Shown in pieces: positions 30,001 through 59,867 of a stretch of 64,000 bases of DNA. Both the position numbers and the translations under genes were made by a program. Location: contig JAQUPI010000003.1 of the NCBI GenBank assembly GCA_028716705.1, forward strand, positions 7,737-71,736, in the 5' to 3' direction. The notes beneath the pieces are model-generated. The model was not told the DNA's origin. It saw only the letters and a list, made by a program, of their open reading frames with translations, and did not search any database. Origin of the DNA: Candidatus Omnitrophota bacterium. GTDB taxonomy: Bacteria > Omnitrophota > Gorgyraeia > Gygaellales > Profunditerraquicolaceae. Within the stretch, counting starts at the first letter, position 1, and the number at the start of each line of letters is the position of its first letter.

Positions 30001-32797
30001 CGGAGAGTTTTTGATATATTACGAGGTGCCGATGTCTTCAGCCGCCGTATTCTTATATGAAGAGAACATAGAGGGATTTGTAATATCCCTGAAAAAAGCG
30101 GGCTTTATTGTAGAAGGGCCGGAACATATCCTGTCTTCTGTGAATTATGCCGTAACCATAAGAGCTAAGAAGCCGCGGAAGGAAGACTCAATTTCAGCAA
30201 AAGCGCTGCGGGAGAAAGCCGTCCCGATCCTTTATGATCTGGGGTATTCAAAAGGATCCCTGGATCCGCTGCTAAAGGAACTTGAGACCCTGTTCAAGGA
30301 GATCGATGCCAGAATGGGGCTGGCCAGGCTTCAAAATGAATTAAGCCAGGCCCTGCAAGCGAATAATGCCGCGCGTCTTATAGCCCCTCTTAACGGATTG
30401 AATTCGCTGTTTGAGGAAAACAACTATAAGAACGTTTACCGTCCAAGGCCGATAATAAATCTATTGATCAACGGCTTAAACGCGGAGGATATCTTTGAGC
30501 GCATAATGCAGACCGAGATCCCGACCATGCTCAAGCTTAAAGCCAATGAAACGCTCATTTCCTGCACTGCCATTTCCCAGCTGGGTTACACCGTTTTGAG
30601 GTCATTGGGCGTGGATGCCAAGGGAGCGATCTCCCCAAGGCACGCTTTCCTCGGAATGGAGCTTAGCGGCGGCCGGGTCCTGTTCATTGATTTCTACAGG
30701 AATATATTCCGTGCGGTCAATATCGCCAGGTATTACAGGAAAGAAGGGGTGTATTTTGTCCTTAAGGAAAAATACAGGCTCAGCCGGAAGGAGTTAGGGG
30801 GGATTACGGAAAGAGTTGCCGCTGTTAAGGGCGGAGAAAGAATAACTGTGGTAGAGAGTTTGAGAGGCAACAAACTTCTGCATTGGAAGTTCTTTTACAT
30901 TAAAATGATCAGTTCCGGGGGAGTTTCCCGCCTTATCCATAACAACCTGGGCCTGGCTTACGGGACTCTAGGCATCTATAATGAAGCGATCTTGGCCTGC
31001 AAAAAAGCCATAAGATTGGACCCGAATTACGCGGATGCCTACAACAACCTGGGGATCATTTACGCCCACCTGGGGCAATACGATAAGGCTATCACGGAAT
31101 TAAGGAAGGCAAAGAAATTGAATCCCAACGATAACGGCATCATTTCCAACTTGGATAAGCTTTATGGTATGCAGGGCGGGATAGGCAAAACCAGTTACCT
31201 GGCTGAAGGCGAACCGCTGGGCATAGACACCCCGGCCGTATCTTTAAATAAGATGTTATTAGGCTGGGCAGGAAGATACAGCGAAGATGAGATTTTGATG
31301 CTGATAAAAAAAGCCAAGGCAGAAAAACGCATAAAGAACCCGGGGCTTAAGCTTGGATTACGTTTATGGATGGCGCAAATACGAACCAACACTTTATTAG
31401 AAACCCTGGCCAAACAAGGGCGGATCGCGGGGCCTCCTTTTATCAAGGGTTTCCGGTTGATCATGAATGAGAATAACGCGCTGACATTCGGCGCTTACAT
31501 CAAACAAGGCATCCTTTATATCGAGCAACCCCTCCTTCAAGACCGTTCCCTCGAAGAGATCATCCTGCATGAAAAAATCGAGATTGTTGCCAAAGACCAT
31601 GCGATAGCGCAAGGCCTGACAAGAGAAGTTCTCACCACTTCGCTGCGCGTACATACATCTAATATCAGGCATATCATTGGCACGGTGCTTAAGCACCGTT
31701 ATTTCCCGCTGTCGATTTTTATTTCCATGATCGCGTTTACCGCCCTAATTTTTACCTACAGGGACACGATTATAAATTTGGGCGTTTTTGATTACCGGCT
31801 GGCGGCATTCCTTACTTCGGCAGTGACTAATGCCACCGTTTTTATTCCGGACACAGGCCTTGTTATAATCCTTTCCCTGGCCGCGGCGTATAATCCTGTT
31901 ATAGTGGGGATTATGACCGGTTTGGGAGCGATCACAGCATTGCTTATGACCTATTTTGGAGGCCGCATTATCCGTTCTTTAGTAAAAGGAGACCGCATAG
32001 ACCGTATCGAGCAAAGGGTAAATCACGGGATAGAGAAACGGGGATGGCTCTTTATCCTATTCGCTTACGGCATCCCCATACCTTCTCCCCTTCCTGAGAT
32101 CACGGGCATAGTAGCCGGAGCCACGAAGTTTTCCATTTCCAGATTCCTTATGTTTATCGTATGCGCTACGGCGGGAAATGTGATAAAAAGCGTTTTTTAC
32201 GCCTGTATCGGCGCATGGCTGTTGAATTTATACGGGCCTGCAGTATTGAACTTTTTCAAGGAGAATGTGCTTATCTTCGCGCCTTTAGCGGGAATAGCCG
32301 TGATCTTCATCGCTTTTGTAGCGATCTTAAAGCTGGTCCCGGAAATAAAAAGGATCCCCGCGTTTGCGTCTATAGACAGGTTACTGACAATTGAGGGCAT
32401 AAAGTTGTTGTTTGAGAAATCCGGGCAAGGCATAAGGATTTCGAAGATAAGCGTAAAGAAAATCAGCATAAAGCCGGTCAGGATAATCATAAAGGGAATA
32501 AGGATCAGGGTCAGGCCGTTGAAAATAAAGGTCAGGGCGCTCAGGATAAAGATCAAAAAGTTAAGAATAAAAGTAAAGAGGCTAAAGATAAGTATAAAGA
32601 AGCTGATTATAAAGAAGGGGGGGATTTCGGAGAACCGGGAAGAAAAAGCCTGCCCGGAAAATAATACAAAAAGAACGCAGGAGAAAACTAATAACCAGGA
32701 CCTTGCCATCGAAAATCTGAGCAATGGTATGGAATCTATGCAGGGAGGTAAGACGGCGCAGATAGAGAATGCCACGGTTATTTCCAGCCGGATATAA
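2..32797 (+). CDS. Giant multidomain protein, 5'-partial. The reading frame is open from window position 2. The first start-like codon in the window is GTG at 185. More than 10,930 aa lie in the window.
   Basis: Continuous stop-free frame for 32.7 kb in ~50% GC DNA. Many recognisable protein motifs occur in this single frame (listed as sub-features). The frame is still open at the window start, so the true start lies upstream. Confidence 0.9.
   Translation, partial: [10931 protein letters not shown]
440..960 (+). other. Domain in giant ORF: class I SAM-dependent methyltransferase fold
   Basis: Motif I '[12 protein letters not shown]' (glycine-rich SAM loop) followed by an acidic residue ('VEIDE') and a post-II region, in the usual Rossmann order. 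Confidence 0.6.
5692..7240 (+). other. gpmI: Domain in giant ORF: 2,3-bisphosphoglycerate-independent phosphoglycerate mutase (iPGM/GpmI-like), apparently full length
   Basis: '[10 protein letters not shown]', '[22 protein letters not shown]', '[10 protein letters not shown]', 'TSHTLNPV' and the C-terminal '[23 protein letters not shown]' match the iPGM family signatures in correct order over ~515 aa. Confidence 0.85.
7255..7790 (+). other. Cluster of ~4 predicted transmembrane helices inside the giant ORF, immediately after the iPGM domain
   Basis: Hydrophobic stretches '[40 protein letters not shown]', '[16 protein letters not shown]' and '[17 protein letters not shown]'. Confidence 0.5.
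10175..10198 (+). other. CxxxCxxC motif (radical-SAM-like [4Fe-4S] cluster motif) in the giant ORF
   Basis: In-frame 'C-S-V-Q-C-D-Y-C'. It is a single motif and no further radical-SAM landmarks were recognised. Confidence 0.3.
17300..17935 (+). other. Domain in giant ORF: RelA/SpoT-type HD ((p)ppGpp hydrolase-like) domain
   Basis: '[14 protein letters not shown]...[10 protein letters not shown]' and downstream '[13 protein letters not shown]' mirror the SpoT/RelA HD-domain blocks ('GEPYI.HPL.VA', 'LLHDVVEDT', 'IKLADRLHNMRTL'). Confidence 0.6.
20000..20470 (+). other. Domain in giant ORF: CHAT / caspase-like (clan CD) peptidase-like segment
   Basis: '[12 protein letters not shown]' (His block) and '[14 protein letters not shown]' (Cys block) resemble the His/Cys dyad motifs of CHAT domains. 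Confidence 0.35.
22580..23150 (+). other. Three helix-turn-helix / winged-helix DNA-binding-like motifs inside the giant ORF
   Basis: '[30 protein letters not shown]' (DeoR-like HTH), '[24 protein letters not shown]', and '[39 protein letters not shown]' (MarR/TrmB-like wHTH). Confidence 0.45.
26238..26475 (+). other. Domain in giant ORF: transglutaminase-like cysteine-protease core (C...H...D)
   Basis: '[17 protein letters not shown]...[23 protein letters not shown]' shows the Cys / His-x-Trp / Asp spacing of the transglutaminase-like superfamily. Confidence 0.3.
27340..27935 (+). other. pcm: Domain in giant ORF: protein-L-isoaspartate O-methyltransferase (PIMT/Pcm)
   Basis: '[15 protein letters not shown]', '[19 protein letters not shown]', '[19 protein letters not shown]' and 'GRVYTIEI' match PIMT blocks in order. 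Confidence 0.8.
28045..28515 (+). other. HEAT-like helical repeats in the giant ORF
   Basis: Repeated '[25 protein letters not shown] / [10 protein letters not shown] / [13 protein letters not shown] / EEVRKHA' helical-pair pattern typical of PBS-lyase/HEAT repeats. Confidence 0.45.
28600..28990 (+). other. Second class I SAM methyltransferase-like domain in the giant ORF
   Basis: '[11 protein letters not shown]', an acidic residue at 'IECVDS', and 'FDIAFLNYP...[10 protein letters not shown]' are in the usual motif I / II / post-III order. Confidence 0.45.
29461..29735 (+). other. GNAT-like acetyltransferase segment in the giant ORF
   Basis: '[41 protein letters not shown]' resembles the GNAT motif A region (R/Q-x-x-G-x-G/A-like with the following helix). 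Confidence 0.3.
30925..31160 (+). other. TPR repeats (about 2.5) in the giant ORF
   Basis: '[63 protein letters not shown]' fits the canonical 34-aa TPR consensus. Confidence 0.7.
31690..32365 (+). other. C-terminal multi-pass TM block with DedA/SNARE-associated-like signature in the giant ORF
   Basis: Several hydrophobic helices plus '[48 protein letters not shown]', which resembles the DedA/TVP38 family core. Confidence 0.4.
32400..32625 (+). repeat. Periodic K/I/R-rich low-complexity tail near the C-terminus of the giant ORF (in-frame ~9-nt periodic DNA repeat)
   Basis: '[60 protein letters not shown]'. The DNA shows repeated AGGATAAAG-like units. Confidence 0.8.
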
Positions 32798-32848
32798 AAT
32801 TGGTTTTAAAAATAGGATTAATTAACAAATTTAGAGGAGGTGAGAAGG

Positions 32849-33178
32849 ATGGACGAGAATAACGGGTTTAAAGAGGACCGCAGGATTTTCGAAAGATTTT
32901 CTGCTGTCATGCCCGCGAATTTGATCGATCTGGACGCGGGAAAGGAATTGGAAGCAACTACTTGCGACGTAAGCGCAAAAGGCGTAGGGGTAGTGTGCGA
33001 AGAGCATTTAACACCGGGAAACCGTTTAGAGTTGTGGTTAAGGATCAAAGACGGGAGAGAACCGCTTTACACCAAAGGCACGGTAATGTGGGCCAGGCCG
33101 GAAGAAGGCAAATGCAGGGCGGGTATCTTGTTGGAGAGGGCAGAATTGATGGGTATGGCGCGAATACTCAGATCGTAA
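32849..33178 (+). CDS. Single-domain PilZ protein (predicted c-di-GMP receptor). A GTG at 32840 is an alternative start.
   Basis: AGGAGG RBS at 32835-32840. Canonical PilZ motifs 'RRIFER' (RxxxR) and 'DVSAKG' (DxSxxG). It lies 52 nt after the giant ORF stop. Confidence 0.8.
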   Translation: MDENNGFKEDRRIFERFSAVMPANLIDLDAGKELEATTCDVSAKGVGVVCEEHLTPGNRLELWLRIKDGREPLYTKGTVMWARPEEGKCRAGILLERAELMGMARILRS

Positions 33179-33231
33179 GGAATAAAGGGTAAAATCTACA
33201 ATAAAATCCAGTAAAAAAAAGAAATTCTTGC

Positions 33232-33259
33232 TTGACAAAACGTATTTATATGTTATACT
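33232..33259 (+). promoter_or_regulatory. Sigma70-type promoter: TTGACA - 16 bp - TATACT with TGn extended -10
   Basis: TTGACA at 33232-33237 and TGTTATACT at 33251-33259, at near-consensus spacing. Confidence 0.55.
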
Positions 33260-33276
33260 TTCAACTAGTTAAGGAA

Positions 33277-33376
33277 TTAAGAAAACGCTTTCTTAACTAT
33301 TTTATAAAGTCTGAACTAAAGGAACGCCACGGTCCTTTAACGAACTTTTTTTGTTATAGGATGGTGGCGTTTTTTA
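33277..33376 (+). promoter_or_regulatory. Structured 5' leader with three hairpins, two of them terminator-like and mutually exclusive (possible attenuator or riboswitch-like element)
   Basis: H1: TTAAGAAA-acgc-TTTCTTAA (33277-33296). H2: AAAGGA-[9-nt loop]-TCCTTT (33318-33338), followed by a run of 7 T. H3: AACGCCAC (33323-33330) pairs with GTGGCGTT (33364-33371), followed by TTTTT and then the RBS GGAG and the ATG at 33393. H2 and H3 share the 'ACGCCAC' segment, so they cannot form together. Confidence 0.45.
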
Positions 33377-33392
33377 TTGGAGTAAAAAACCA

Positions 33393-34916
33393 ATGTTGAG
33401 AAAATTCAGGCTAAAGCTGGTTTACGGTTTCATATTCAGCCTCTTTATTCATGCCTTTTCTTTTGCCATGGCGAAAGAAATCAACATCCCCAGCCAGTTC
33501 GGTAGCACAAAAGAAATATTCCAGCCCGCGAATCCCGGCCCTTCCGCAGAACGCACCATCATCCATATACAGGACGCGCATTGTAATTATGAGGCCCAAA
33601 AAAACATGGCCCAGCTCTTAGATTATTTGGCCAAAGATGACAATCTTAAACTGATCATGGTCGAAGGCGGTAGCGGGGACGTCAGCTTGCGGTTTTTAAG
33701 GGGCTACGCGGATAAGAAGGCCAGAGAACAGGTCGCGGAAAAATACCTTAAGGCGGGAAAGATCTCCGGCGAAGAGTATTTGGATATCGTTTCCGATCAC
33801 GCTATAGAGCTTTACGGGATAGAGGATGAAGGCTTGTATGAAGCGCATTTGGCGAGTTTCCAAAAAGTGGATTCTTTCAGGCAGAAGGCGCTGCAAGATT
33901 TAGGGGCCTTAGCAGGCATAGTAAATGGGCTCAAATCCAGGATATATCCGGAAGATCTGCGGCGTTTAGACGAACAAAAAAGCAGTTATGAGGGGCAAAA
34001 GACCGCGTTAGCCGAATATTGCCGCTTCCTTAATAATACAGCCGCAAAAAAGAGGATCGGCCTTGGCGCTTACCCGCACCTGGGCGCCTTTTCAGAGACT
34101 GCCCGCCTGGAAAAAGAACTGGACCTTAGGCAAGCGGAAGCCCAGCGCAACGCTTTCATCAAGGATCTGGCCAAGCTTTTAAACGAAAGAGAGGCGCAGA
34201 ACCTTATCCTTATGACCCAGGGTTTTAAGGCAAAAATGATCACTCCTGAGAAATATTATTCTTTTTTGTTGGACACCGCCACCGAACAAAAGATCAACCT
34301 GAGCCGCAGGTACCCTGAGCTTGGCGCTTATATCAGGTACGTGACCACAAGCGGGAATGTAGACGCGGCCGAGCTTTTAAAGGAAGTAAACGCGGCAGAA
34401 GAGAAGATAAAAGACGCTTCATTGAGCAGCCCTGAACAGAAGAAATTATCCGAGATTGACAAATCCCTCCATATCTTGACCAAAATACTGAACTTGGAAT
34501 TGACCCCTGAAGATTACGCGTATTTCAAAGAAAACACGCGCCGGTTCATGACTGCCGGTTGGATAGGTTTTTTAAATGAAGAGTGCGACAAATATAATTT
34601 TTCCACCCGGCCTTTTTTTGTCAAGGCCATCGATGAAAACCTGAAGGAGCTTGACGGATTTTACCGGTTGGGAGTAGCAAGGGAAGAGGCCTTTATCAAT
34701 AATTTGGCGGCCAAGCTCGACGATTCAAAAGAAAAGACCGCGGCGCTCATTACCGGCGGGTTCCACACGCCGGGCATTACCCGCAATTTAAAGAACCGCG
34801 GTTATTCTTATATAGTAGTCACCCCGGTGATCACGCAGAAAAGCGAACCGGACCTTTATTTTTCCGTGCTAAGAAGCGAGAAAAGACAGCCCGTAAGGGT
34901 TTCCGATGAAGAATAG
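33393..34916 (+). CDS. Exported hypothetical protein (507 aa) with an N-terminal signal peptide; possible ChaN/EreA/Tiki-superfamily fold
   Basis: RBS GGAG. Hydrophobic N-terminus 'LVYGFIFSLFIHAFSFAMA'. The 'TIIHIQDAHCNYEAQKNMAQLLDYLAKDDNLKLIMVEGG' pattern is reminiscent of the ChaN/EreA N-terminal block (weak). The stop overlaps the next gene by 11 nt. Confidence 0.7.
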   Translation: MLRKFRLKLVYGFIFSLFIHAFSFAMAKEINIPSQFGSTKEIFQPANPGPSAERTIIHIQDAHCNYEAQKNMAQLLDYLAKDDNLKLIMVEGGSGDVSLRFLRGYADKKAREQVAEKYLKAGKISGEEYLDIVSDHAIELYGIEDEGLYEAHLASFQKVDSFRQKALQDLGALAGIVNGLKSRIYPEDLRRLDEQKSSYEGQKTALAEYCRFLNNTAAKKRIGLGAYPHLGAFSETARLEKELDLRQAEAQRNAFIKDLAKLLNEREAQNLILMTQGFKAKMITPEKYYSFLLDTATEQKINLSRRYPELGAYIRYVTTSGNVDAAELLKEVNAAEEKIKDASLSSPEQKKLSEIDKSLHILTKILNLELTPEDYAYFKENTRRFMTAGWIGFLNEECDKYNFSTRPFFVKAIDENLKELDGFYRLGVAREEAFINNLAAKLDDSKEKTAALITGGFHTPGITRNLKNRGYSYIVVTPVITQKSEPDLYFSVLRSEKRQPVRVSDEE

Positions 34917-37900
34917 ATTAAATAGAAAACAATTAAAAAGGAGAATGAAAATGAACGCAGGGAATTTCCACAAGAGTTTATTGGCCAGGATAATGAGCCT
35001 TATCATTATCGTAAATTTCATTATTACCACCGGCCCTGTGAGCCTTTACGCGCAGGACATGTTGAAGGCGCCGTCAGCGGTCCAGAAAAATGACAGTCCT
35101 GTCCAGAATTTGATCGACGATCTCAGGGCGACGCAGGCAGGCCGTGAAATAGCCGCCTTTAAACGGATCGGCATACTCACCAGCGGCGGCCCGGCTTCCG
35201 GACATAACGCGGCCATTTACGCGGCAGTCGAAAAAATGAAAGAGCAGGGCATAGAGGCAGTGGCGATCCTGGACGGTTTTGACGGATTATACGAGGAGAA
35301 ATTAGTCAGCCAGGCACGGCCCCTTAGCCTGGAAGAGGCAAGGTCCCAGCGCAATAAAGGCGGGACAATGCTCGGTACTGACCGCATGAACCCCTTTGAG
35401 GCTAAAAATGTCGCAAACGGAGTTCCGCAGGCGATCTGGACGAATATCCAGAAGCTGAAACTGGACGGCTTGATCGTTCTCGGAGGCAACGACAGCCAGA
35501 GCACGTCTTATAAATTACAACAAGAGCATCCGGATTTCCCGATCATAGGCCTGGCTAAGACTATGGATAATGATCTGGCTTTACCTGAATTGGATGCTTT
35601 AACCTACGGTTTTGATACTTTTGTCAGGGAAACCACAAGGGCCCTGATAAAAATGATCCGCGATTGCCGCTCTATGAGAAGGATCGGGGTGGTTGAGGTA
35701 TTCGGCAGGAGCGCGGGGCATGTAGCGTTGCACGCCGGAGCCAATGTCAGGGCAAGCCGTACACTTTTACCCGAGGAAGGCAACCTTGATCTAGAGCAAC
35801 TGGTGAGCGACCTTAGAGAGAGCAAAAATAATGATAAATACAGAGCAGCCTTGTTAGTAGTTTCAGAAGGCATAAGTATAAGCAAGGATTACAAGAATAA
35901 CGCAGGCATATTGGAAAAAGCTTTTGCCGAAGACGAAGTGGCCAAGGCGGCTTTTGAAAAGGCGGTTAAGGGCGCCAAAAAAGATTCCTTCGGTAATCCT
36001 AAACTGGAGAATACCGGGAAAATCATCGCCGCGGTCTTGCGCTCGCAGGGTTTAGCCGTGAGCGAAGACCAGGTTAAATACATCGCGCGTTCGGCCAACC
36101 CTTCAAAGTTAGATATCGCCATGACAGAGCTTATAGGCCGCGCGGCGGTAGAAAATCTTTTGCAGGGAAACCATGGCCGCATTTTATACGCCTATAACAA
36201 TCAAGCCAGGTCTATCCCGTTCGCCTCGGACGTGGGGGGCAGAGTAGCGGACCTGACAGGGCATAAGCAGCTGTATTTAAGGGCGAACCAGGCCTTTGAT
36301 ATTAAGGTATCGGATAAGCCGGCTCTGAATTTTGCGAATACGGCTGAAGTCAATAGCGCGATAGCCGGCATATTGGCTGTCAGCGACAAGGCTGTCAGCG
36401 TGCTTGATGAAGAACGCCTGAGGAGCCAGCTTATTGATAACCTGGTTTATGACGCTACATTCGGCAGCGATAAGGAAGTAGTTAAGCTTTGCCGCCGGCT
36501 CATTAAAGACACCGCAGCCGCCCAAGGCGCGGTGCTCGGTTCTGTTTATGAGCTTTACAGGGCGAAAGCGAAAGATAAAAAACAATATACAGTCCCGGCG
36601 ATAAATATCAGGGGCATGGGTTACAATACCAGCAGGGCGGTATTCGCCTCAGCCATAGATAACAATGCCGATAAGTTCATCTTCGAGATCGCAAGGAGCG
36701 AGATAGGTTATACGGCTCAGCGGCCGGCGGAACTAGTTACCTCCGTTTTAGCGGCGGCGATCAAGGAAGGCTATAACCTGCCTGTATACCTGCAAGGCGA
36801 TCATTTTCAGGTTACGCTTAAGGACTATACGGCAAGCCCGGAAAAAGCAAAAGATTATATTAAAGGGTTGATCCGCGAGGCGATAGAAGCGGGCTTCTAT
36901 CAGGTAGACCTGGATATGTCACAACTAGTGGATTATACCAAGGCCGATGTTCAAGAGCAGCAGGAACTGAACTACAAATTAGTGGCTGAACTTACCGCTT
37001 ACGTGAGGGATTTGGAAAGGGAATTAGGTTTAGACAGAGCGGGTATCGTTGTTAATTTGGGCGGTGAAATAGGAGAGATCGGCAAGGGCTTAGCCGAAAA
37101 GGACCAGAAGAACAGCACCGTCGCGGAATTAAGGGCGTTTATGGACGGTTACAACGCTGAATTAAAGCGCCTCAGCCAGGAAAAAGGATACGAGCTGAAC
37201 CCTATCACAAAAATCGCGATCCAGACCGGCACTCAGCATGGCGGCATCAGAAACGCCAAAGGTGAATTGGTCAGGGCCAAGGTTAGTTTTAACGCCATTG
37301 CCGAACTCGGTAAAGTAGCCAGGGAAGAATACAGCCTGGCGGGCGTAGTGCAGCATGGCGCGTCCACCCTTCCCGAAGATAATTTTACGCTTTTCGCGGG
37401 CAACACCCCGGAAGGCCTGGTTATTGATGAAAGCCTTTTGAATGAGGCTTCTAAAAATATATTGAGCACCAACCCCGCCGCCGAAGTGCATCTGGCTACG
37501 GCTTATCAAGACACGATCATCGATCATCCCAGGATGCCCGCTTCTATGGTTTCCCAAATGAGGGAATACATTTTCAGCAAAAATCCGGTTAAGGAAAACC
37601 AGAACGCGGACGGAGTCTTTGTTTCCAACCGCAAAAATGTTTGGGGCCCGTTCAAGGCCCAGGTATGGAACCTGCCTGCTGGCGTGCAAGAAGCTATGCG
37701 CGACAGCCTGCGCGGACAATTCGACGTGGTCTTTAACAATATGGGGGTGAAGAATTCATCCCAGGCGCTTATCGCGCAAAAGGCCTCCGAAAAGGCAAAG
37801 CTTGTTAAAACAAGACTGGCTATAAATAACCCCGGTGGGCAAGAACGGGAGCTTATCAGGCTTTGGCTGGCAGGCAAATCCGCCGGTATCGACTTAGTCG

Positions 37901-40900
37901 GCGTAAACGGTATTTCTCCGGGCAGCCTGTATTATCTTTTAACCAAGGATTTCACCGCCTCCCCGGATGTCAGGGCATGGTTCACCGCTAATTTCACTTC
38001 GCTGCCGGAAGGCATAGGCGACAAAAACAAGAAACTCATTCTGCCTGTCACTGAAATTATCGACGCTAAGGACTTGCCTTGGAAGAAATTGAACCCGGAT
38101 GTCGTGCTTGAGGGTTCGGATCCGCAGCTGGCGGCCAGCCATAAGAGCCAGGGCGCGAAATCCGTCATTGTTGCCCACCCGGCTTTAACCGCGGTCAGCG
38201 CCTTAATGCCGGTCATTTCCGTCATGGGCGACCAGATCAAAGGCATCAATTTTACGGATATCCAGCCGCCTACGCCTTTACAGCGCGGCCTTGATAATTC
38301 CGGTCCGGACCCGGTATTGATGCGGGCCATGGGGATTAACCTCGTTCCTTCATTAAGAAAGGACATAGACAAATATGTGCAGGCATTATGCCCCGCGGAT
38401 CTAGCCGCGCATATAAAGGGCGCGATCAATTTTGCGCCTCAGGCGTTAGGTTCATTGCTGGACGTTCATATAGTCGTAAATAAAGATACTGACGCCGCGG
38501 CTATAAATAAACTGTTCAAGGCCGCGATCGAAGGCGTTTTAAAAGGCAAGGTATCTTACTCGCAGGATTCCTCTCTGGTATCCGTGGATACTTACCAGCA
38601 GCCGCAGCTTATCTTCTTGGCCAACAACACGAAGGTTACCGGGAAGAGGATCGTGCATTTACAATTCATGCACAATGAGGAGGCGACCTTTGCCGCGACG
38701 CAAGTACCTTTATTACTGCAGGCGCTGAAGGAGGGAAAAGCCCCCTCGATTATTACATCCAAAGATACTCAAACTATCTCCGCGGACGCTCAGGTAGTCT
38801 TGGATATCATCCAGGCAGAGCAGTCTAAGATGGCCAGGCCCGCGTTCCTGGGTACCAACCTGGCTTTTATTCCCGCTCTCGACGGCAACGTCAAGCCGCG
38901 TATCGTAGTTCGCGGCAAGGCCGTTAGTCCCGCGATCGTAGGTATAAACGGTCCCGGAAGAGTGGGCAGGCCTTCGACCTGGGCAATGCAGGGGGACCCG
39001 AATGTCGACCTGAGGATGATCAACGGTTCTTCCAGCGCTTTGATCCTGTCATGGTTATTGTCCGAAGATTCCGTGCAGCAGTCAATATCAAAGCCGGTCA
39101 CAAGAATAGTAATAACCCCCGCGCAGTTAAAGAGGGAAGTTTCCTCTCTGCTGGGCAGCTACAGTATCGAGCAGGTAAACGGATTCTTGACCGGCCTGCT
39201 TAGCTCTCAAAGATTATACCTGCTTAAAGAAAAAGAAGAATTCGTTCCTTACATCAAAAACCTCCTGGCCTCTTGGGGCAAGCCCAGTAATGAGCTTGAT
39301 TCCGCGGCCAATTGGTTGCTGAAGAGCCTGGTAGGCGTTTTAGATATTAACGGTAAAAAAGTCCTGGTAGTTAACGAGAGAAAAGCGATCACGGAACTTC
39401 CCTGGGACGTAGCAGGCATAAAGACGATCATGGAGTGTACCGGGGATCTGAAGAACGCTGACGAAGCCAGGCAGCATCTGGCGCATATTTCCGGAGGCAA
39501 GGTGATCATATCCGCTCCGGCCGAAGGAGCAGGCCAGTCTATCGTCTTGGGCGTAGTAGAGCCCAGCCGCGCTGCTCAGATCGTGGATAATGCCAGCTGC
39601 ACCACCAACTGTTTAATGCCTATGGTCGCGGTTTTGAATAAGGCATTCGGCGTGCTCATGCAGGAGATCACCACTGTCCATGCTTATACCACCGACCAGA
39701 CTTACGCCAGACAGGCAACACATAAAAAGGAAGCTACCCGCGGGAGGGACGCAAGGACGAACAGCCTTCCCGGTTCTACCGGAGCTGCCAAAACCGCCGC
39801 CGTTATATATCCGGACCTTGCCGGAAGGTCCGACGGTTGGGCAGTGCGCACGCCTCACGTCACCGGTTCTGCCGTAGCCCTGACCGCTACACTTAAGGGC
39901 AATGTGACCAAAGAACAGATACAGGCGGCGTTTAAGAGCGCCAGCGAAAAGGAAATGGCCGGGATCATGGCTTATACCCAGGCCCCGATCGTTTCTTCAA
40001 TGATCATCGGCAACCCGGCTTCCAGCATCATTGACGGTAATGCCATTGAAATCATCAGCTACGACGAAGAACTTGACCAGACCACAGCCGGTATTACCTC
40101 CTGGTATGACAATGAATATGGTTTCTCAAACCGTATGGTGAACCTTGCCGTAGCCCTGCAAGGCTTCTCTTTGATCAAAGGGAAAGCCCTGGCAGACATA
40201 GGCCCCAAAACCGTCGAGTTATTTGAAAACAAAATAAAAGAGATCTCTCCTGCCACGGTAGTCTGGAACGGGCCGATGGGCGTAGTGGAAGTTGCGGCTA
40301 CGAGCAAGGGTACTGACGGAGTGGCCATGGCGATCACCGCCTTAGGCGATAAAGTAGTTAAGGTTGTGGGAGGGGGGGATACCTTAAAGACGCTTTCGGA
40401 AGAAGAACGCGAGAAATTCACGCACGTCTCAACCGGCGGCGGCGCCTTCCTGGAGGCATTTCAATTCGGCGTGGATAATCTCCCGGGGATTAAGGCCCTG
40501 ATCGATCCTTCCACGGGCAAGATGGCGACGATGGACGGGCTCCTGCCGGTTTTGAAAGAGGGAGATACCGTCTTGATACGAGTTGACTTCAACGTGCCTT
40601 TGGATTCGCAATTAAAAGTAACAGATAGCACCAGGATCAAAGAAACAATGGTTACCATAAGGCCGTTGTTAGAGAAAAAGGCCAAGGTCATCCTGATGAG
40701 CCATTTAGGCCGGCCTAACGGGAAATTCGACGCTAAGCTTACCATGAACCCGGTGGCTTATGAACTGCAGAAACTCTTGCTAAAAACCAAAGTACATAAA
40801 TTGGATGACTGCGTGGGTAAGCCCGTGCAGGATTTTATCCAGAATACGGTAAAGCCCGGTGAAGTCGTAATGCTGGAGAATACCCGTTTTCGGTTAGACG

Positions 40901-42408
40901 AAGAACAGAATGCCTCTGGTTTTTCAAAGGATTTAAGCCAGCTGGCCACATATTACATTGATGACGCCTTTGGCACCGCGCACCGCGCGCATGCTTCGAA
41001 CGGCGGCATTACCTCAAATTACGCCTGGGGCAAGAAGTTCGCTGGCAGGCTTCTGGAGAAAGAAGAGCAGTATCTGAAACAGGTCTGCGAGAGTCCCAAG
41101 GAGCCCATGGTCGTAGTTTTGGGCGGAGGCAAGGTCAGCGATAAGATACATATCATCAATACCTTGAAACAGAAAGCGTCTGCTTTCCTGATCGGCGGAA
41201 GGATGTCTTTGGCATTCTTGGCAGCTCAGGGTCAGCAAGTCGGTGATTCCACGCCCGATAAACTTGACGTGGATACCGCCAAACGTTTCCTCGCCGATCC
41301 GCAGTTAAAAGGCAAGATCATTCTGCCGCAGGATAACATGGTGGTTACCGATATCTCTACGGGCGCGGACGCGACAGTTGTAGAAGGCAGTGTTGAGCCT
41401 TCGGATATGAGCGCGTTCCAGGAACAATTCCTGGCTTACCTTAAGTCTTATGTTGCTCTTGAAAGCGCGGAAGGAAAAGCGCTCGCTGCCGTCCAGAAAG
41501 CTGAAACCGAAGCCAGGCGGCTTATAGGTCTTCCCACCGCGCCAGAAGCTGCTCCTACTGTAACTCAGGCGGCAGTCGATCCCGCTCAATTAAGGTTCGG
41601 CGAGGCGAATGGTTTCCTTACTCCTGAGTCGCAGGCCAGAAACAAACCGGATTTCCAATATACCATGGGTTTTGGGGATGCCGCTAATTCCTACAGACCA
41701 GCCTCTGATTTAAGCCCGGCACTGCTGGTTCCCGAAGGCACCGTGTATACGGGAACTTCCGTGCTTTTCGGTAATTTCGCAAATGCCGTTAAGAATCGTG
41801 ATATAGCCGAAAGGGACGGCGCTGTCGTCATAGGGGCGAACGTGATATTGGAGAACGCGGGCTCTTTGACCAGCCTGAAGGCATTCAAGGATACAGGAAA
41901 AATCGTTGTTTATGCGCAAGACACTTCAACCCTGGAAGTTTTAAAAGCCATGGGGATAGATTCGGTAACGAAAAATATCATAAACGGGGAAACAAAAGGC
42001 GTCTCGATCGAGAATATCGCCATAGAATACAGCATGTCGGGCGAGACCGTCCTGGTTACCGCTCCCGTGGATCGTAAAGATATCAACTTAGGCAACATTC
42101 AAAAGGCTGGTGTCCGGATGTTGAATCTGGAGACGCCCAAAACTGAAGTAGGCAAGATAAACAGCATGCCGCTGGTTATCGCCAGGGCATTTGCCAGGAT
42201 TTACCAGGAAGACGCGAATGTGCCCAGGCAATTTAACACCTTAAGCAACAATTACGCAACGAAGAACCAGGTATTGGCGACAGATATCGAGAAGCTTAAC
42301 AACCTGGCTTCCCAGATCTGCGACGTGCCTTTAGTGCAGTTGAATATGGAGCAGGATAAAGAGATAATCGCGGCCCAGATGGCTTACCAGGCGGCCGTAA
42401 GCATATAA
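34906..42408 (+). CDS. 2500-aa fusion protein: N-terminal signal/anchor, then phosphofructokinase, class II fructose-bisphosphate aldolase, a ~400-aa unknown module, GAPDH, a circularly permuted phosphoglycerate kinase, and a conserved C-terminal domain
   Basis: Single stop-free frame. All four enzyme families are recognisable by their hallmark motifs in series (see sub-features). The start overlaps the upstream gene, which implies translational coupling. Confidence 0.9.
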   Translation: MKNRLNRKQLKRRMKMNAGNFHKSLLARIMSLIIIVNFIITTGPVSLYAQDMLKAPSAVQKNDSPVQNLIDDLRATQAGREIAAFKRIGILTSGGPASGHNAAIYAAVEKMKEQGIEAVAILDGFDGLYEEKLVSQARPLSLEEARSQRNKGGTMLGTDRMNPFEAKNVANGVPQAIWTNIQKLKLDGLIVLGGNDSQSTSYKLQQEHPDFPIIGLAKTMDNDLALPELDALTYGFDTFVRETTRALIKMIRDCRSMRRIGVVEVFGRSAGHVALHAGANVRASRTLLPEEGNLDLEQLVSDLRESKNNDKYRAALLVVSEGISISKDYKNNAGILEKAFAEDEVAKAAFEKAVKGAKKDSFGNPKLENTGKIIAAVLRSQGLAVSEDQVKYIARSANPSKLDIAMTELIGRAAVENLLQGNHGRILYAYNNQARSIPFASDVGGRVADLTGHKQLYLRANQAFDIKVSDKPALNFANTAEVNSAIAGILAVSDKAVSVLDEERLRSQLIDNLVYDATFGSDKEVVKLCRRLIKDTAAAQGAVLGSVYELYRAKAKDKKQYTVPAINIRGMGYNTSRAVFASAIDNNADKFIFEIARSEIGYTAQRPAELVTSVLAAAIKEGYNLPVYLQGDHFQVTLKDYTASPEKAKDYIKGLIREAIEAGFYQVDLDMSQLVDYTKADVQEQQELNYKLVAELTAYVRDLERELGLDRAGIVVNLGGEIGEIGKGLAEKDQKNSTVAELRAFMDGYNAELKRLSQEKGYELNPITKIAIQTGTQHGGIRNAKGELVRAKVSFNAIAELGKVAREEYSLAGVVQHGASTLPEDNFTLFAGNTPEGLVIDESLLNEASKNILSTNPAAEVHLATAYQDTIIDHPRMPASMVSQMREYIFSKNPVKENQNADGVFVSNRKNVWGPFKAQVWNLPAGVQEAMRDSLRGQFDVVFNNMGVKNSSQALIAQKASEKAKLVKTRLAINNPGGQERELIRLWLAGKSAGIDLVGVNGISPGSLYYLLTKDFTASPDVRAWFTANFTSLPEGIGDKNKKLILPVTEIIDAKDLPWKKLNPDVVLEGSDPQLAASHKSQGAKSVIVAHPALTAVSALMPVISVMGDQIKGINFTDIQPPTPLQRGLDNSGPDPVLMRAMGINLVPSLRKDIDKYVQALCPADLAAHIKGAINFAPQALGSLLDVHIVVNKDTDAAAINKLFKAAIEGVLKGKVSYSQDSSLVSVDTYQQPQLIFLANNTKVTGKRIVHLQFMHNEEATFAATQVPLLLQALKEGKAPSIITSKDTQTISADAQVVLDIIQAEQSKMARPAFLGTNLAFIPALDGNVKPRIVVRGKAVSPAIVGINGPGRVGRPSTWAMQGDPNVDLRMINGSSSALILSWLLSEDSVQQSISKPVTRIVITPAQLKREVSSLLGSYSIEQVNGFLTGLLSSQRLYLLKEKEEFVPYIKNLLASWGKPSNELDSAANWLLKSLVGVLDINGKKVLVVNERKAITELPWDVAGIKTIMECTGDLKNADEARQHLAHISGGKVIISAPAEGAGQSIVLGVVEPSRAAQIVDNASCTTNCLMPMVAVLNKAFGVLMQEITTVHAYTTDQTYARQATHKKEATRGRDARTNSLPGSTGAAKTAAVIYPDLAGRSDGWAVRTPHVTGSAVALTATLKGNVTKEQIQAAFKSASEKEMAGIMAYTQAPIVSSMIIGNPASSIIDGNAIEIISYDEELDQTTAGITSWYDNEYGFSNRMVNLAVALQGFSLIKGKALADIGPKTVELFENKIKEISPATVVWNGPMGVVEVAATSKGTDGVAMAITALGDKVVKVVGGGDTLKTLSEEEREKFTHVSTGGGAFLEAFQFGVDNLPGIKALIDPSTGKMATMDGLLPVLKEGDTVLIRVDFNVPLDSQLKVTDSTRIKETMVTIRPLLEKKAKVILMSHLGRPNGKFDAKLTMNPVAYELQKLLLKTKVHKLDDCVGKPVQDFIQNTVKPGEVVMLENTRFRLDEEQNASGFSKDLSQLATYYIDDAFGTAHRAHASNGGITSNYAWGKKFAGRLLEKEEQYLKQVCESPKEPMVVVLGGGKVSDKIHIINTLKQKASAFLIGGRMSLAFLAAQGQQVGDSTPDKLDVDTAKRFLADPQLKGKIILPQDNMVVTDISTGADATVVEGSVEPSDMSAFQEQFLAYLKSYVALESAEGKALAAVQKAETEARRLIGLPTAPEAAPTVTQAAVDPAQLRFGEANGFLTPESQARNKPDFQYTMGFGDAANSYRPASDLSPALLVPEGTVYTGTSVLFGNFANAVKNRDIAERDGAVVIGANVILENAGSLTSLKAFKDTGKIVVYAQDTSTLEVLKAMGIDSVTKNIINGETKGVSIENIAIEYSMSGETVLVTAPVDRKDINLGNIQKAGVRMLNLETPKTEVGKINSMPLVIARAFARIYQEDANVPRQFNTLSNNYATKNQVLATDIEKLNNLASQICDVPLVQLNMEQDKEIIAAQMAYQAAVSI
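35160..36235 (+). other. pfk: Domain: 6-phosphofructokinase (PFK-A family; residues suggest a PPi-dependent type)
   Basis: 'RIGILTSGGPASGHNAAI', 'LIVLGGNDSQST', 'GLAKTMDNDLALPELDALTYGFDT' and 'EVFGRSAGHVALHAG'. The D in GGNDS and the K in AKTMDND correspond to the Asp/Lys pair typical of PPi-PFKs. Confidence 0.8.
36580..37650 (+). other. fba: Domain: class II (metal-dependent) fructose/tagatose-bisphosphate aldolase
   Basis: 'YTVPAINIRGMGYNT', 'LPVYLQGDHFQV', 'YQVDLDMS', 'IQTGTQHGG' and 'VVQHGASTLPED' correspond to class II FBA blocks. Confidence 0.65.
38895..40160 (+). other. gap: Domain: glyceraldehyde-3-phosphate dehydrogenase
   Basis: 'IVGINGPGRVGR', 'GGKVIISAP', 'IVDNASCTTNCLMP', 'TVHAYTTDQ', 'SLPGSTGAAK' and 'WYDNEYGFSNRMVNL'. 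Confidence 0.9.
40190..40510 (+). other. pgk: Domain: the last ~105 residues of PGK (nucleotide-binding half), placed upstream of the PGK N-domain
   Basis: 'DIGPKTVELF', 'VVWNGPMGVVEV', 'VVGGGDTL', 'HVSTGGGAFLE' and 'LPGIKAL' are normally the C-terminal blocks of PGK. Confidence 0.85.
40565..41395 (+). other. pgk: Domain: PGK N-terminal (3-phosphoglycerate-binding) domain through the hinge and the first part of the C-domain
   Basis: 'LIRVDFNVPL', 'ILMSHLGRPNG', 'VMLENTRF', 'YIDDAFGTAHRAHAS', 'VVLGGGKVSDKIHIINTL' and 'FLIGGRMSLAFLAAQG'. Confidence 0.9.
41740..42405 (+). other. Conserved ~222-aa C-terminal domain of unknown function, shared with the next ORF
   Basis: 'VYTGTS..GNFA', 'GxNVILENAG.xTSL', 'VVYAQD', 'KINSMPL.I.RAF' and 'LNNLASQ.CDVPLV.L' align colinearly with 47470-48138. 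Confidence 0.8.
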
Positions 42409-42453: not shown

Positions 42454-45400
42454 ATGCGGCCTTTGAAGCCCGGCTCATTACGCAAAATCATTATATTCCT
42501 TACCCTTGTCAGTTTCATTGCGTCTTTCGCGCCGGCTCAACTCTACGCGCAGATCCTTTCCGATACGCTCAGGACATCTTCGGCCAGGGCTACTGCCGTA
42601 AAGGATGAGATCGCCGTTGATCTGCTTAGAAGCGGCAAGCTTCCCTATGTGGTCACCTACGCAGACCCGCGCTCCGAAAGGAAAGAGACTGCCGGGGGAA
42701 AGTGCGCGCAGCTGGCCTGGGCATATAACCGGGGGATCCCCAATCCTCTGGGTTTTAGCATAACCGTGGAAGCGGTGAGGGAGTATTACAGGTACAATCC
42801 CAAACTCATAGAGATGATCAAAGATGCGCGTAACCTTGACATAAACGATGCCAAGAAACGCGCGGAGACAGCTTTACGGATACAGAATTTTATGATGAAG
42901 GAAACGAAGCTCCCTCCGGCCGTTTTTAAGGCGGTAAGCGATGACCTCGTGATGATGAGCAGGGTCTTGGGTTATGAAGAGGACGAGATGGTCCCGGTCG
43001 CCTACCGGGGAAGCGGCGTTATCGAAGACTTTGAAGGAGCCATACCCTGGTTCAAGAAAACGATCGGAGCCCAGCCGGGGCAAGGCACCACGCTGCTCAA
43101 CAAGCGCGGTTTTACCGATATTGAGCCATCGGTGATCGAAGTTATCGCCGGCTTGTTCAATGACCAGATATTCGTCTACCGCGATGTCCAGATCTTTTTT
43201 GATTTTGTGAGCAAGATGCGGGATGTCTCAGAGTATAACAAATTGATCCTTTGGGCGAAGAAATACGGTTTTAACGTTGCGGCCAGCAGGCTGGAGAATG
43301 AAAATTCACCCGGCTATGTCAACCTGCGCAAGATGATCGAGGAGATCGAGGCAAAGGAGCCGGGGGCGAAAGAGCAATATAAATGGGGTGATAAACTTGA
43401 GAAATCGGCAAACGATATCCTGGAGCCCATGAATTTTGTTACCGGCATTGCCGTGCTGGAAATGGCGGATAGTTTATTTTCCGGAACCGCATTCACTTCA
43501 CACCTGGGAACCGGATTCGACGGCTCAACATTCGCCAAGAAAACAAAAGGTCTTTTCCCGAAGAAGAGAGGGGATAAGTTCGATGGTTATACCCGCTATG
43601 TAAAAATAAATTTAGGCACAGGGTTAGGGCCCGGCATTGTAGAAGGAAAATTCCAGCCGAATATCGTAACCTTCTTTGATATTACCGGCCAGGGCAAATG
43701 GGTGCCTACCGAATTTTCAGTGGGCAAGAAACACATGAGTTTGATATATATAGATAAGGTTATCGATTCTTTAGCACCAAAATTCGCAAGGGAACAGATC
43801 TACCTCTTTGCCCAGTTATACGCGGATTGGCAAAACCCGATCAAGCAGCAGGGGGTCCGGGTCGCCCTTAAAACGGAGTTCAATATCGAAGCGGAAAGCT
43901 GGATACGGGCGATGATGGACCTGTGGTATTTTTATGATAAACCCGATAAACATAAAGCCACCGCCCAGGAAAAAGCGGTTTTATTGAAGGAACTCAACGT
44001 AAACGAAAATGAATTCTTTACCTTAAGCCATTTAGTCAAACATATCAATAAGGTCGCGACCAGTTATGATACGGCCTCTTATATGCTTACTTCCCCGGAA
44101 CTCGCGTCGAGCAGGCTTTTAAGCGATGAAGGTTACAAGAAACTCGCGGACATGATCGCTAAAGTCGGCAATCTTATGGCCCAGGAGCGGTTTGAGGCCG
44201 CCGACAAGGGCTGGCGCGAGCGCAGGGATATCGAGTTTTCGGTTGTCCGCTGCAACGAAAACGACACAAGTAAATATAAGGTAAAACTGGAACATATTTA
44301 TGACCTGGTAACCGGCAATGACCTGGGGGAGGGCTGGGTAAAGATACTGCATATCCAGAACCGGCCGATCAATCCGGAAAAAGAGATACAGGACCCGGAT
44401 AACATAATTTTCAAGAAGATGAAGGTCGACGAAGATTTTGTGGACGGCCAGGGTATTTTGCCTATCGCGAAAAACGGGCTGGTTGGCTATGGAGCGGCTG
44501 AAGGCATGCTTTATTTTGTCGATCCTTACAACGACCTGGCTGAGCAAGAAGAAGAAGTCGCGAAGATGAAAGACCAGGGAAAGAGCGTGATCGTGGTCCT
44601 GGAAGAAATGGGCCCTGAGCATGATCCTATAGTAGAAAAAGCGGGCGCCGCGATCGTGTGGAGGGGTAATGACACCAGCCACGCTTATATATTCAGCCTG
44701 GAATTAAAGATCCCCATCGTTATAAACGCGGCTACGCAGCCAGGGTTCGAAGGATATCTTAAGGACCGCATGAACGCGGTTATTGACGGCTCAGGGGGAA
44801 TGATCTATCCCGGAGATAAAGAGATCCCTCTGCTTCCGGACAATCTGATCATACGCGTAGACATGCTTCCGGAGACGAAAGTCGGGATGATCGTTTCCAC
44901 GCTGCAAAGCGCGCAGGAGGTAGCGCGGTTAGGAGCGAAGAGTGTCCTTACCCGTATGGAATTTTTGATCAATAATGTAGTCAAAATATACCCGCAGGCG
45001 GGTTGGGCCTATGACCTGATGACCAAGCTGGATAACGGGCAGATAAGCGAGTCCGGCCTTACTCCCGAAGAGCTGAAAGACGTAGCGGCATTAAGGCAGC
45101 ATCCGGAGATAATAGAAGAGATCAGAAAGATGATCACAAGCTTTCCGTCGGCAACTGAATTCATGGCTGAAAAGATGCGTTATGCCGGCAACGCGCTTGG
45201 TTCTATCTTTCCTATACTTAATGAAATGCGCGCCTACGATAATAAGGAAAAAGAAGCGCTTCTTTACGGGCTTATCGGCGCCAAACTTTATCTGCGTTAT
45301 GACGATAAAAATCCTGAATTCGATTCCCCGTTGGTCGGCATGCGCGGCTCAGCGTTAATGAGCCATCCGCATCTAAAGAAGGGATTTCAGGCTTTAAACA

Positions 45401-48156: not shown

Positions 48157-48205
48157 AAGGCCTCTGAAAAAATCAATGAAAACTTTTCAGGGGCCTTATT
48201 TCCTT
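48157..48205 (+). terminator. Rho-independent terminator after the 1895-aa ORF
   Basis: AAGGCCTCTGAAAA (48157-48170), a 13-nt loop, then TTTTCAGGGGCCTT (48184-48197), followed by a T-rich 'ATTTCCTT'. Confidence 0.6.
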
Positions 48206-48233: not shown

Positions 48234-48299
48234 TTATGATAGCATGAATTTCTTAGAAAAAGCCACCACGGAAAAAGCCACGGAGAAAGGAAAGGAGGC

Positions 48300-48629
48300 A
48301 TGGACGACCGTAGGGTTTTTGAGCGCATCGGCACGAAGCTGCCCGTCAGATTCTTAGACCCCATAAGCGGCAAAGAAGGTACCGCGGATACAACTGATAT
48401 CAGCGCCAACGGCCTTGGTATGGTGACCAATGAGAGCTTAAGAACCATGACTCCTTTAGAGATGTGGCTGGGAATCCCCGATAAACACGAGCCCCTTTAT
48501 ACGCGAGGCCAGGTAGTCTGGTCAGAATCCCTCCCCAGTTCCGGAGAATACCGCATCGGCATACGGCTGGAAAAAGCAGAATTAATGGGCTTAGCCAGGG
48601 TGTTATGGCTTAAGAGGCGCGCAGGTTAA
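48300..48629 (+). CDS. Single-domain PilZ protein, a paralog of the one at 32849-33178
   Basis: RBS AAGGAGG. Motifs 'RRVFER' and 'DISANG'. The sequence is colinear with the first PilZ, including the shared C-terminal 'EKAELMG.ARVL'. Confidence 0.8.
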   Translation: MDDRRVFERIGTKLPVRFLDPISGKEGTADTTDISANGLGMVTNESLRTMTPLEMWLGIPDKHEPLYTRGQVVWSESLPSSGEYRIGIRLEKAELMGLARVLWLKRRAG

Positions 48630-59828: not shown

Positions 59829-59867
59829 TTGACTTATTTTGCTTTTGTTGGTAGTATAAAACCAACA
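59829..59867 (+). promoter_or_regulatory. Promoter (TTGACT - 17 bp - TGgTAGTAT) with an overlapping 7-8-7 palindrome TGTTGGT-N8-ACCAACA that ends at the ATG; candidate autoregulatory operator on a leaderless-like start
   Basis: TTGACT at 59829-59834, TAGTAT at 59852-59857, inverted repeat at 59846-59852 and 59861-59867. No RBS precedes the ATG at 59867. Confidence 0.45.

Follow-up and report, generated by a model that had tools for sequence, protein, structure and literature searches.

A conserved attenuator-like leader with an invariant GCCACGG terminator arm upstream of glycolytic-fusion operons in Omnitrophota

Omnitrophota are uncultured, ultra-small and possibly predatory bacteria, and we know of no work on the regulation of their giant, pilZ and sugar-uptake genes. 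In a 64,000-nt stretch of DNA from Candidatus Omnitrophota bacterium (assembly GCA_028716705.1, contig JAQUPI010000003.1, positions 7,737 to 71,736; hereafter the window), an A+T-rich gap (33179-33392, 29-35% G+C) separates a PilZ gene from exp507, the first gene of a predicted operon that continues with a fusion of glycolytic enzymes and a dikinase-like gene. An initial annotation had placed a near-consensus promoter and a leader with alternative terminator-like hairpins in this gap, and we were interested whether this leader controls the operon and, if so, what kind of signal it would respond to. Judged from the sequence, a strong promoter, a strong terminator and a gene in this order are the anatomy of an attenuator. 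We propose, with a probability of roughly 0.55, that the leader attenuates the exp507/fusion/dikinase operon and that the heptamer GCCACGG in its RNA is recognised sequence-specifically in trans. The leader belongs to a known kind of element, the leader attenuators and riboswitch-like elements, and its unusual trait is the invariant arm of the terminator; it probably represents a new family of on/off control elements.

Promoter, terminator hairpin and their conservation

The -35 hexamer TTGACA (33232-33237, + strand) and, after a 16-nt spacer, the extended -10 element TG-T-TATACT (33251-33259, + strand) form a sigma-70 promoter with 11/12 hexamer matches plus the extended -10 TG. It is the top-ranking promoter-like sequence of 31500-35500 and agrees with the near-consensus promoter annotated. 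Transcription is predicted to start at ~33266, which gives a leader of 127 nt (~33266-33392) close to the ~125 nt estimated before, and all features described for it were found in place. Alternative-structure prediction, named as a check by the initial annotation, yielded for 33266-33400 a minimum free energy of -43.1 kcal/mol compared with -23.1 +/- 3.3 kcal/mol for 200 dinucleotide shuffles (z -6.1; 0/200 as good), the fold consisting of a 5' hairpin and one long hairpin at 33325-33369. The latter (CGCCAC.GUCC.UUAACGA ... UUGUUAU.GGAU.GUGGCG, + strand; core -22.6 kcal/mol) had been missed by a simple terminator scan because of its internal mismatches. GCCACGG (33326-33332, + strand) lies in its 5' arm and pairs with CCGUGGC to a stem base of 5-6 G-C pairs, right after which follows the U-tract UUUUUUAUU (33370-33378, + strand) with the predicted termination point; hairpin and U-tract are, by these sequence features, a textbook intrinsic terminator, and the terminated RNA would measure ~108-113 nt. 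As annotated, this second T-run stands immediately before the ribosome-binding site, the Shine-Dalgarno sequence GGAG (33379-33382) and the ATG of exp507 at 33393 (together 33379-33395, + strand). Two mutually exclusive stem-loops, each with its own T-run, had also been reported. Both stem-loops exist and compete, but only the long one is a predicted terminator, and the first T-run (T7, 33346-33352) turned out to be its apical loop.

For comparison, 80 loci were collected from species-representative genomes by exp507 protein alignment, eight more from close relatives by exact-protein look-up, and further instances from a DNA-pattern scan of metagenomes. The same leader architecture was found in 41 Omnitrophota loci upstream of an orthologous exp507 (proteins ~36-66% identical to that of the window), with the shared order promoter, palindrome (most loci), AAAGU block, GCCACGG hairpin, 3' arm and U-tract. 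A TTGAC -35 and a TAnnnT -10 spaced 16-18 nt were present in 41/41 instances, TTGAC being invariant in the 22-sequence alignment A2; GCCACGG was likewise present in 41/41 and invariant in 22/22 A2 sequences. All 41 instances fold as a GCCACGG...(C/U)(C/U)GUGG(C/U) hairpin (mean -21.7 kcal/mol) followed by a T-run. The hairpin interiors (7-64 nt) have unrelated sequences across loci yet are complementary, the inner arms reaching a mean of -8.3 kcal/mol in native and -2.2 in swapped combinations (z -14.2; 0/5000). G-U pairs far exceed A.C mismatches in these instances (75 vs 8), indicating selection on the + strand RNA, and the stem base varies almost only by 3'-side changes that turn G-C into G-U pairs, the 5' arm being constant throughout. 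The annotated structures are thus conserved in homologous loci, with promoter, hairpin and U-tract in 41 of them and a covarying interior.

The predicted terminated RNA is of rather uniform size (median 109 nt, range 75-156 nt; 41 instances). Together with the strong promoter and terminator this would also fit an independent ~110-nt small RNA (sRNA) gene or an sRNA derived from the 5' untranslated region (UTR), whose 3' half CCGUGGCUUU may pair in trans with AAAGCCACGG of the mRNAs of PilZ2, a gene described below; the 3' arm and U-tract show 10-12 nt of complementarity to the PilZ2 5' UTR. We regard this as very unlikely. The start codon lies 0-25 nt past the U-tract in most loci (0-60 nt range), leaving no room for a second promoter, so the unit must also be an mRNA leader; it is always directly upstream of a same-strand gene, and the sequence proposed as seed is tied up in a hairpin of ~-22 kcal/mol. 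At several loci, such as L017 and L018, the start codon stands directly at the U-tract (0-3 nt), so that the mRNA must read through the hairpin, and the element is therefore, by its anatomy, an attenuator and not a separate sRNA gene. Two loci, L011 (~2795-3000) and L014 (~2656-2920), have 200-260 nt extra between the GCCACGG terminator and the predicted start, part of which, in L011, is an inverted repeat rich in G+C, GCGCC...GGGCGGGGC.

We considered and rejected the possibility that the hairpin is a terminator type or repeat found generally in these genomes, as a regular expression and a covariance model over 580-709 kb found the hairpin only in these leaders. With the covariance model (R1), no locus in 709 kb had more than one strong match, and each such match immediately preceded a same-strand gene. 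The distant paralogue loci L024, L025 and L027-L080 are without the element except for L047, which has GCCACGG...AGUGGC and a T-run 18 nt before the start. Among 83 stretches from the metagenome pattern scan, all nine with promoter and T-run precede an exp507 homologue (9/9), and ~69 are chance matches in unrelated G+C-rich DNA.

Rfam holds no such family. The cmscan comparison suggested initially returned no riboswitch or leader family: with Rfam 15 and a permissive E-value, the best match to the leader reached 25.4 bits against a gathering score of 100, and at gathering thresholds nothing except one tRNA elsewhere was found in 12 sources. T-box, RAT, ANTAR and guanidine-II-like ACGR loops were rejected for want of Rfam matches, and we also take the loop sequences not to fit any of these. 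Searches of the literature for riboswitches or RNA motifs in Omnitrophota yielded nothing that describes such an element. The leader would thereby be a candidate family for Rfam and a conserved, phylum-specific control point before operons of predicted exported glycolytic-enzyme fusions (once before a sugar transporter), and R1 could be used to map its regulon in complete Omnitrophota genomes.

Competing hairpin and 5' blocks of the leader

Overlapping the terminator stem, AAAGGA (33318-33323) can pair with UCCUUU (33333-33338) in a competing hairpin (33318-33338, + strand; -6.8 kcal/mol), a candidate antiterminator with GCCACGG in its loop; the competing structure in the window amounts to -6.8 to -9.7 kcal/mol. 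The nascent RNA is predicted to fold this small hairpin first, and the full leader favours the terminator (-40.1 kcal/mol vs -25.1 with the small hairpin forced). Such an order of folding would suit a metabolite-binding riboswitch, in which the 5' hairpin P1, the linker and the GCCACGG region form an aptamer and a ligand, for example cyclic di-GMP (c-di-GMP), a glycolytic intermediate or pyrophosphate, stabilises the competing hairpin and blocks the terminator. Competing hairpins are moreover enriched over swapped controls (z -4.8), the gene associations are coherent (glycolysis, sugar uptake, c-di-GMP receptors), and, as in known riboswitches, the same cis-acting 5' blocks are joined to two platforms in different genes, the terminator (exp507/PilZ2) or a hairpin over ribosome-binding site and start codon (Velamenicoccus PilZ). 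Unlike riboswitches, the leader shows no complex conserved aptamer. RNAalifold across loci gave P1 (5 bp) and the terminator base (7 bp) as the only conserved helices, and no aptamer of several helices or with a junction was found in this analysis of the leader alignment. About two thirds of the lineages have no competing hairpin, distant loci keep the terminator hairpin without the first 5' block, no Rfam riboswitch matches, and the PilZ2 5' UTRs, which are short and unstructured and leave no possibility of an aptamer, contain GCCACGG as well. We therefore consider a riboswitch unlikely, and the sensing of a metabolite by the leader, as raised by the initial annotation, is speculation.

The first 5' block (block 1, or P1; 33277-33296, + strand), UUAAGAAA-ACGC-UUUCUUAA, is the strong 8-bp hairpin of the initial annotation and occurs in this exact form only once in the window; alternatively, 33266-33276 can form 11 bp with 33290-33299. 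Its core GAAAACGCTTTC (33281-33292, + strand) is a 12-nt palindrome with a central CG, GAAAAC/GCTTTC in the window and GAAARC/GCTTTC as family consensus in most loci, and lies ~15-26 nt downstream of the predicted start. The core is kept in ~27/34 lineages, and RNAalifold showed P1 as a 5-bp helix with 93% paired. Judging by its sequence, block 1 may function in the RNA as a hairpin or in the DNA as a LacI-type operator.

Control at the DNA level would combine such an operator, bound by a LacI-family sugar-responsive repressor, with a terminator, constitutive but leaky, that would both dampen the strong promoter and keep transcription of the giant gene and the PilZ gene upstream from reading in. 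Known LacI-family operators (CcpA cre, Cra/FruR boxes) are similarly even, CG-centred palindromes just past the promoters of glycolytic and sugar genes; in the leader, the even 12-bp palindrome directly downstream of the -10 is in a roadblock position and is conserved by sequence, not by covariation. Extended to 14 nt, block 1 has the shape of a CcpA cre or LacI-family operator, TGWAANCGNTNWCA, and versions such as TGAAAGCGCTTTCA (L009, L013, L026) agree with the cre consensus. Candidate binders are encoded at the end of the adjoining sugar-use cluster, namely a LacI-family (62078-63103) and a ROK-family regulator (59867-61102), and a terminator scan found none between the upstream PilZ gene and the promoter or leader, as would befit a terminator that acts against read-in. 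On the other hand, the half-sites are unequally conserved, with GAAAAC on the left in 12/25 and the equivalent GTTTTC on the right in 3/25 (phylogenetically dependent) sequences, lineages without the central CG keep the GAAA/UUUU pairing by G-U pairs, and the sugar cluster has no second copy of the palindrome. An operator would account for block 1 only and not for the hairpin, and it does not tell why GCCACGG never varies and comes back in PilZ UTRs, or why a mere insulator would follow the promoter in 41 loci. Combined with a leaky terminator it is a serious contender for block 1, but we hold this explanation of the leader for improbable.

Block 2 (AUAAAGUCU, 33304-33312, + strand) lies in the A/U-rich linker between block 1 and the terminator hairpin and contains the conserved AAAGU (consensus ..TTTT..AAAGTAT.. 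in alignment A3). According to the folding prediction, block 2 of the window is able to pair with ACUUU (33345-33349) in the nascent RNA. No small open reading frame (ORF) in the leader was conserved across loci; together with a GUG of the 3' arm being in frame with the gene in only ~5/25 loci, this led us to reject leader-peptide attenuation. CsrA-type GGA sites were rejected as well, as GCCACGGA is present in only about half of the instances.

GCCACGG in PilZ leaders and a proposed trans-acting factor

A second PilZ gene of the window, PilZ2 (48300-48629, + strand), is preceded by a promoter-like region of its own, and its 5' UTR contains GCCACCACGG-AAAAA-GCCACGG (48262-48283, + strand), followed by AGAAAGGAAAGGAGGC-AUG up to 48302. 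As in the window, GCCACGGAGAAAGG precedes the PilZ2 orthologues in L011, L014, L172, L173 and L174; the PilZ2 loci L172-L175 were fetched blind to the motif, and 3/4 carry it. The region is unstructured (z ~0), by which long-range pairing in the PilZ2 leader was rejected. PilZ2 is 63-83% identical among relatives and thus far more conserved than exp507, and a sugar ABC transporter follows it in the window and in L172-L175. L174 carries a full copy of the leader (63 bits, E 1.5e-9) before PilZ2 and a gene for a sugar-binding protein instead of exp507.

Five metagenome loci fall into the cluster of the PilZ protein of Ca. Velamenicoccus archaeovorus. Their PilZ leaders have GAAAACGCUUUC, then GCCACGG, then CCUCU, and pair with AGGAGG and with a CGUGGC that contains the GUG start codon; this hairpin is predicted to sequester ribosome-binding site and start codon. 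As the GCCACGG region here pairs with Shine-Dalgarno sequence and start codon, the same 5' elements appear joined to a translational platform. The five loci were found via the pattern, so the heptamer in them is ascertained, whereas their intergenic position, orientation and anti-Shine-Dalgarno pairing are independent.

A trans-acting factor is suggested by three observations: GCCACGG in the 5' arm does not vary, in contrast to a 3' arm in which G-U pairs and mismatches are tolerated; this heptamer is unpaired in 5' UTRs of PilZ genes; and it also forms the hairpin at the Velamenicoccus PilZ gene. Its recurrence in unstructured PilZ 5' UTRs in particular argues for such a factor rather than for metabolite sensing. 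We envisage that the promoter starts an RNA with the small conserved hairpin or palindrome (33277-33296), the A/U-rich linker and the strong terminator (33325-33369) with its U-tract, at a distance of 15-25 nt from the start codon that follows. In the default state the polymerase would stop at the U-tract and release an RNA of ~110 nt, and the operon would be on only if the hairpin were kept from forming or acting. The factor, a protein more likely than a small RNA, would recognise GCCACGG in the RNA and open or block the hairpin, resulting in antitermination at the leader and in translational control at the PilZ genes. The 7-nt invariant element could serve as bait for the binding partner.

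Several findings weigh against this assignment. The anatomy would be compatible with a leaky constitutive terminator too, and the conserved helix columns, being nearly invariant, barely covary. The competing hairpin is credible in only ~12-14/34 independent lineages (swap test z -4.8), and a broader antiterminator test (linker vs hairpin) was weakly significant (z -2.6). Of the attenuator or riboswitch-like element first suggested, the conserved terminator between near-consensus promoter and start codon has therefore stood, and a two-state ligand switch is speculative. The most distant loci (L011, L014, L016-L018, L021, L023) lack block 1 or have a degenerate form of it, and the terminator hairpin does not depend on it. 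GCCACGG occurs seven times in the window vs ~6 expected and is not enriched overall, and its link to PilZ genes comes from ~5 independent lineages.

Protein-dependent leader attenuators (BglG/SacY/LicT RAT-terminator, PyrR, TRAP, LoaP) offer the nearest comparison to an attenuator under a trans-acting factor. They also have a constitutive promoter, a leader with an intrinsic terminator, carbohydrate genes and a short conserved RNA sequence that overlaps the 5' side of the terminator, where a bound factor would prevent termination. The present leader differs in that it matches neither RAT, PyrR-binding loops, (G/U)AG repeats nor any Rfam leader, and in that it is the 5' arm of the terminator itself that is conserved. 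The order of promoter, small conserved hairpin, leader terminator and genes of 7.5 and 5.7 kb resembles LoaP-dependent leaders, and an unvarying heptamer on the non-template strand also recalls the ops element, so that a specialised NusG paralogue might load at the leader for processive antitermination (LoaP- or RfaH-like) across the very long downstream genes. This is extremely unlikely, as no NusG paralogue was seen among the genes of the window, the same elements stand before short PilZ genes, and there is no sequence similarity to ops.

Could the factor be a PilZ protein? GCCACGG might be the RNA site of a c-di-GMP-responsive regulator, with the small, highly conserved PilZ proteins beside the leaders as candidates; these would regulate themselves via the heptamers in their own 5' UTRs and antiterminate the operons for the exported glycolytic mega-enzyme and for sugar uptake which accompany the giant 'archaeovorin' genes. 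The link to PilZ and c-di-GMP is by association, with PilZ genes flanking the leaders, upstream in the closest clade and downstream as PilZ2, and we think such a circuit quite improbable; a new class of riboswitch for c-di-GMP or a glycolytic metabolite would be the alternative to it. In Borrelia, the PilZ protein PlzA binds DNA and RNA of the glpFKD promoter and 5' UTR in a c-di-GMP-dependent manner (PMC9915621). Both cases link PilZ with a carbohydrate operon at its 5' UTR; in the present one, PilZ genes flank the leader and have the heptamer in their own UTRs. The Omnitrophota PilZ proteins differ from PlzA, being mostly single-domain (~110 aa) with no nucleic-acid binding predicted, and the likeness is one of association. 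If true, the idea would amount to an antitermination circuit of PilZ and RNA controlled by a second messenger, and it offers a testable link of c-di-GMP signalling to central carbon metabolism.

The predicted operon and its neighbours

All genes around the leader are on the + strand. The predicted operon begins with exp507 (33393-34916, + strand), whose 507-aa product has an N-terminus resembling a signal peptide and matches no Pfam family at E <= 0.001. Its homologues are all from Candidatus Omnitrophota and share the invariant motifs QDAHCNYEAQK and GGFHT. The AlphaFold model (predicted local distance difference test score, pLDDT, 85.8) has an alpha/beta core with a long helical insert and gave no significant fold match in the PDB, matches to ChaN, HopBA1 and EreA-like structures being weak. 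In many other Omnitrophota (L029, L034, L042, L045, L048 and others) the exp507 module forms the N-terminus of a much longer ORF. Several exp507 copies, each with its own GCCACGG leader, were observed in one metagenome-assembled genome (L014/L016/L017) and in one assembly (L169/L170), which may reflect either multiple copies per genome or mixed bins.

An 11-nt overlap joins exp507 to the gene of a 2500-aa fusion of PFK, an aldolase/FBPase-like region, GAPDH and PGK (34906-42408, + strand), which is presumably co-transcribed. Similar glycolytic fusions follow exp507 in L165, L168, L169 and L170, and relatives join TIM, FBPase_3, PGK and GAPDH in other orders. Next comes a pyruvate-phosphate-dikinase-like protein of 1895 aa (42454-48141, + strand). 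Both the fusion and the dikinase-like protein have N-terminal hydrophobic, signal-peptide-like segments, from which these glycolytic enzymes are predicted to be exported or membrane-anchored. Directly after the dikinase-like gene, a terminator-like inverted repeat, AGGCCTCTGAAAA...TTTTCAGGGGCCTT then ATTTCC (~48158-48200), probably marks the end of the operon, with the dikinase-like gene as its last gene. Beyond PilZ2, a sugar-use cluster from 48681 (+ strand) comprises an ABC transporter, an MFS transporter and GH2-like enzymes, up to the ROK and LacI regulators mentioned above.

On the other side, the first PilZ gene, PilZ1 (32849-33178, + strand), is directly upstream of the leader promoter. 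A PilZ gene also precedes the leader in L001, L164, L165 and L167-L171, and in L093, L114 and L115 it is elsewhere on the same contig. Before PilZ1, a giant ORF of 10,870 aa (185-32797, + strand) begins close to where the window starts. At related loci the place before the PilZ gene is taken by ORFs of 2,100 to 24,677 aa, and the giant ORF of the window fits the Omnitrophota 'giant genes' of the literature. The gene order of giant gene, pilZ and sugar-uptake genes in Omnitrophota has already been published (bioRxiv 10.1101/2023.11.21.568195). A third GCCACGG, at 32771-32777 in the last 30 nt of the giant ORF and ~79 nt before the start of PilZ1, has no pairing partner and is probably due to chance.

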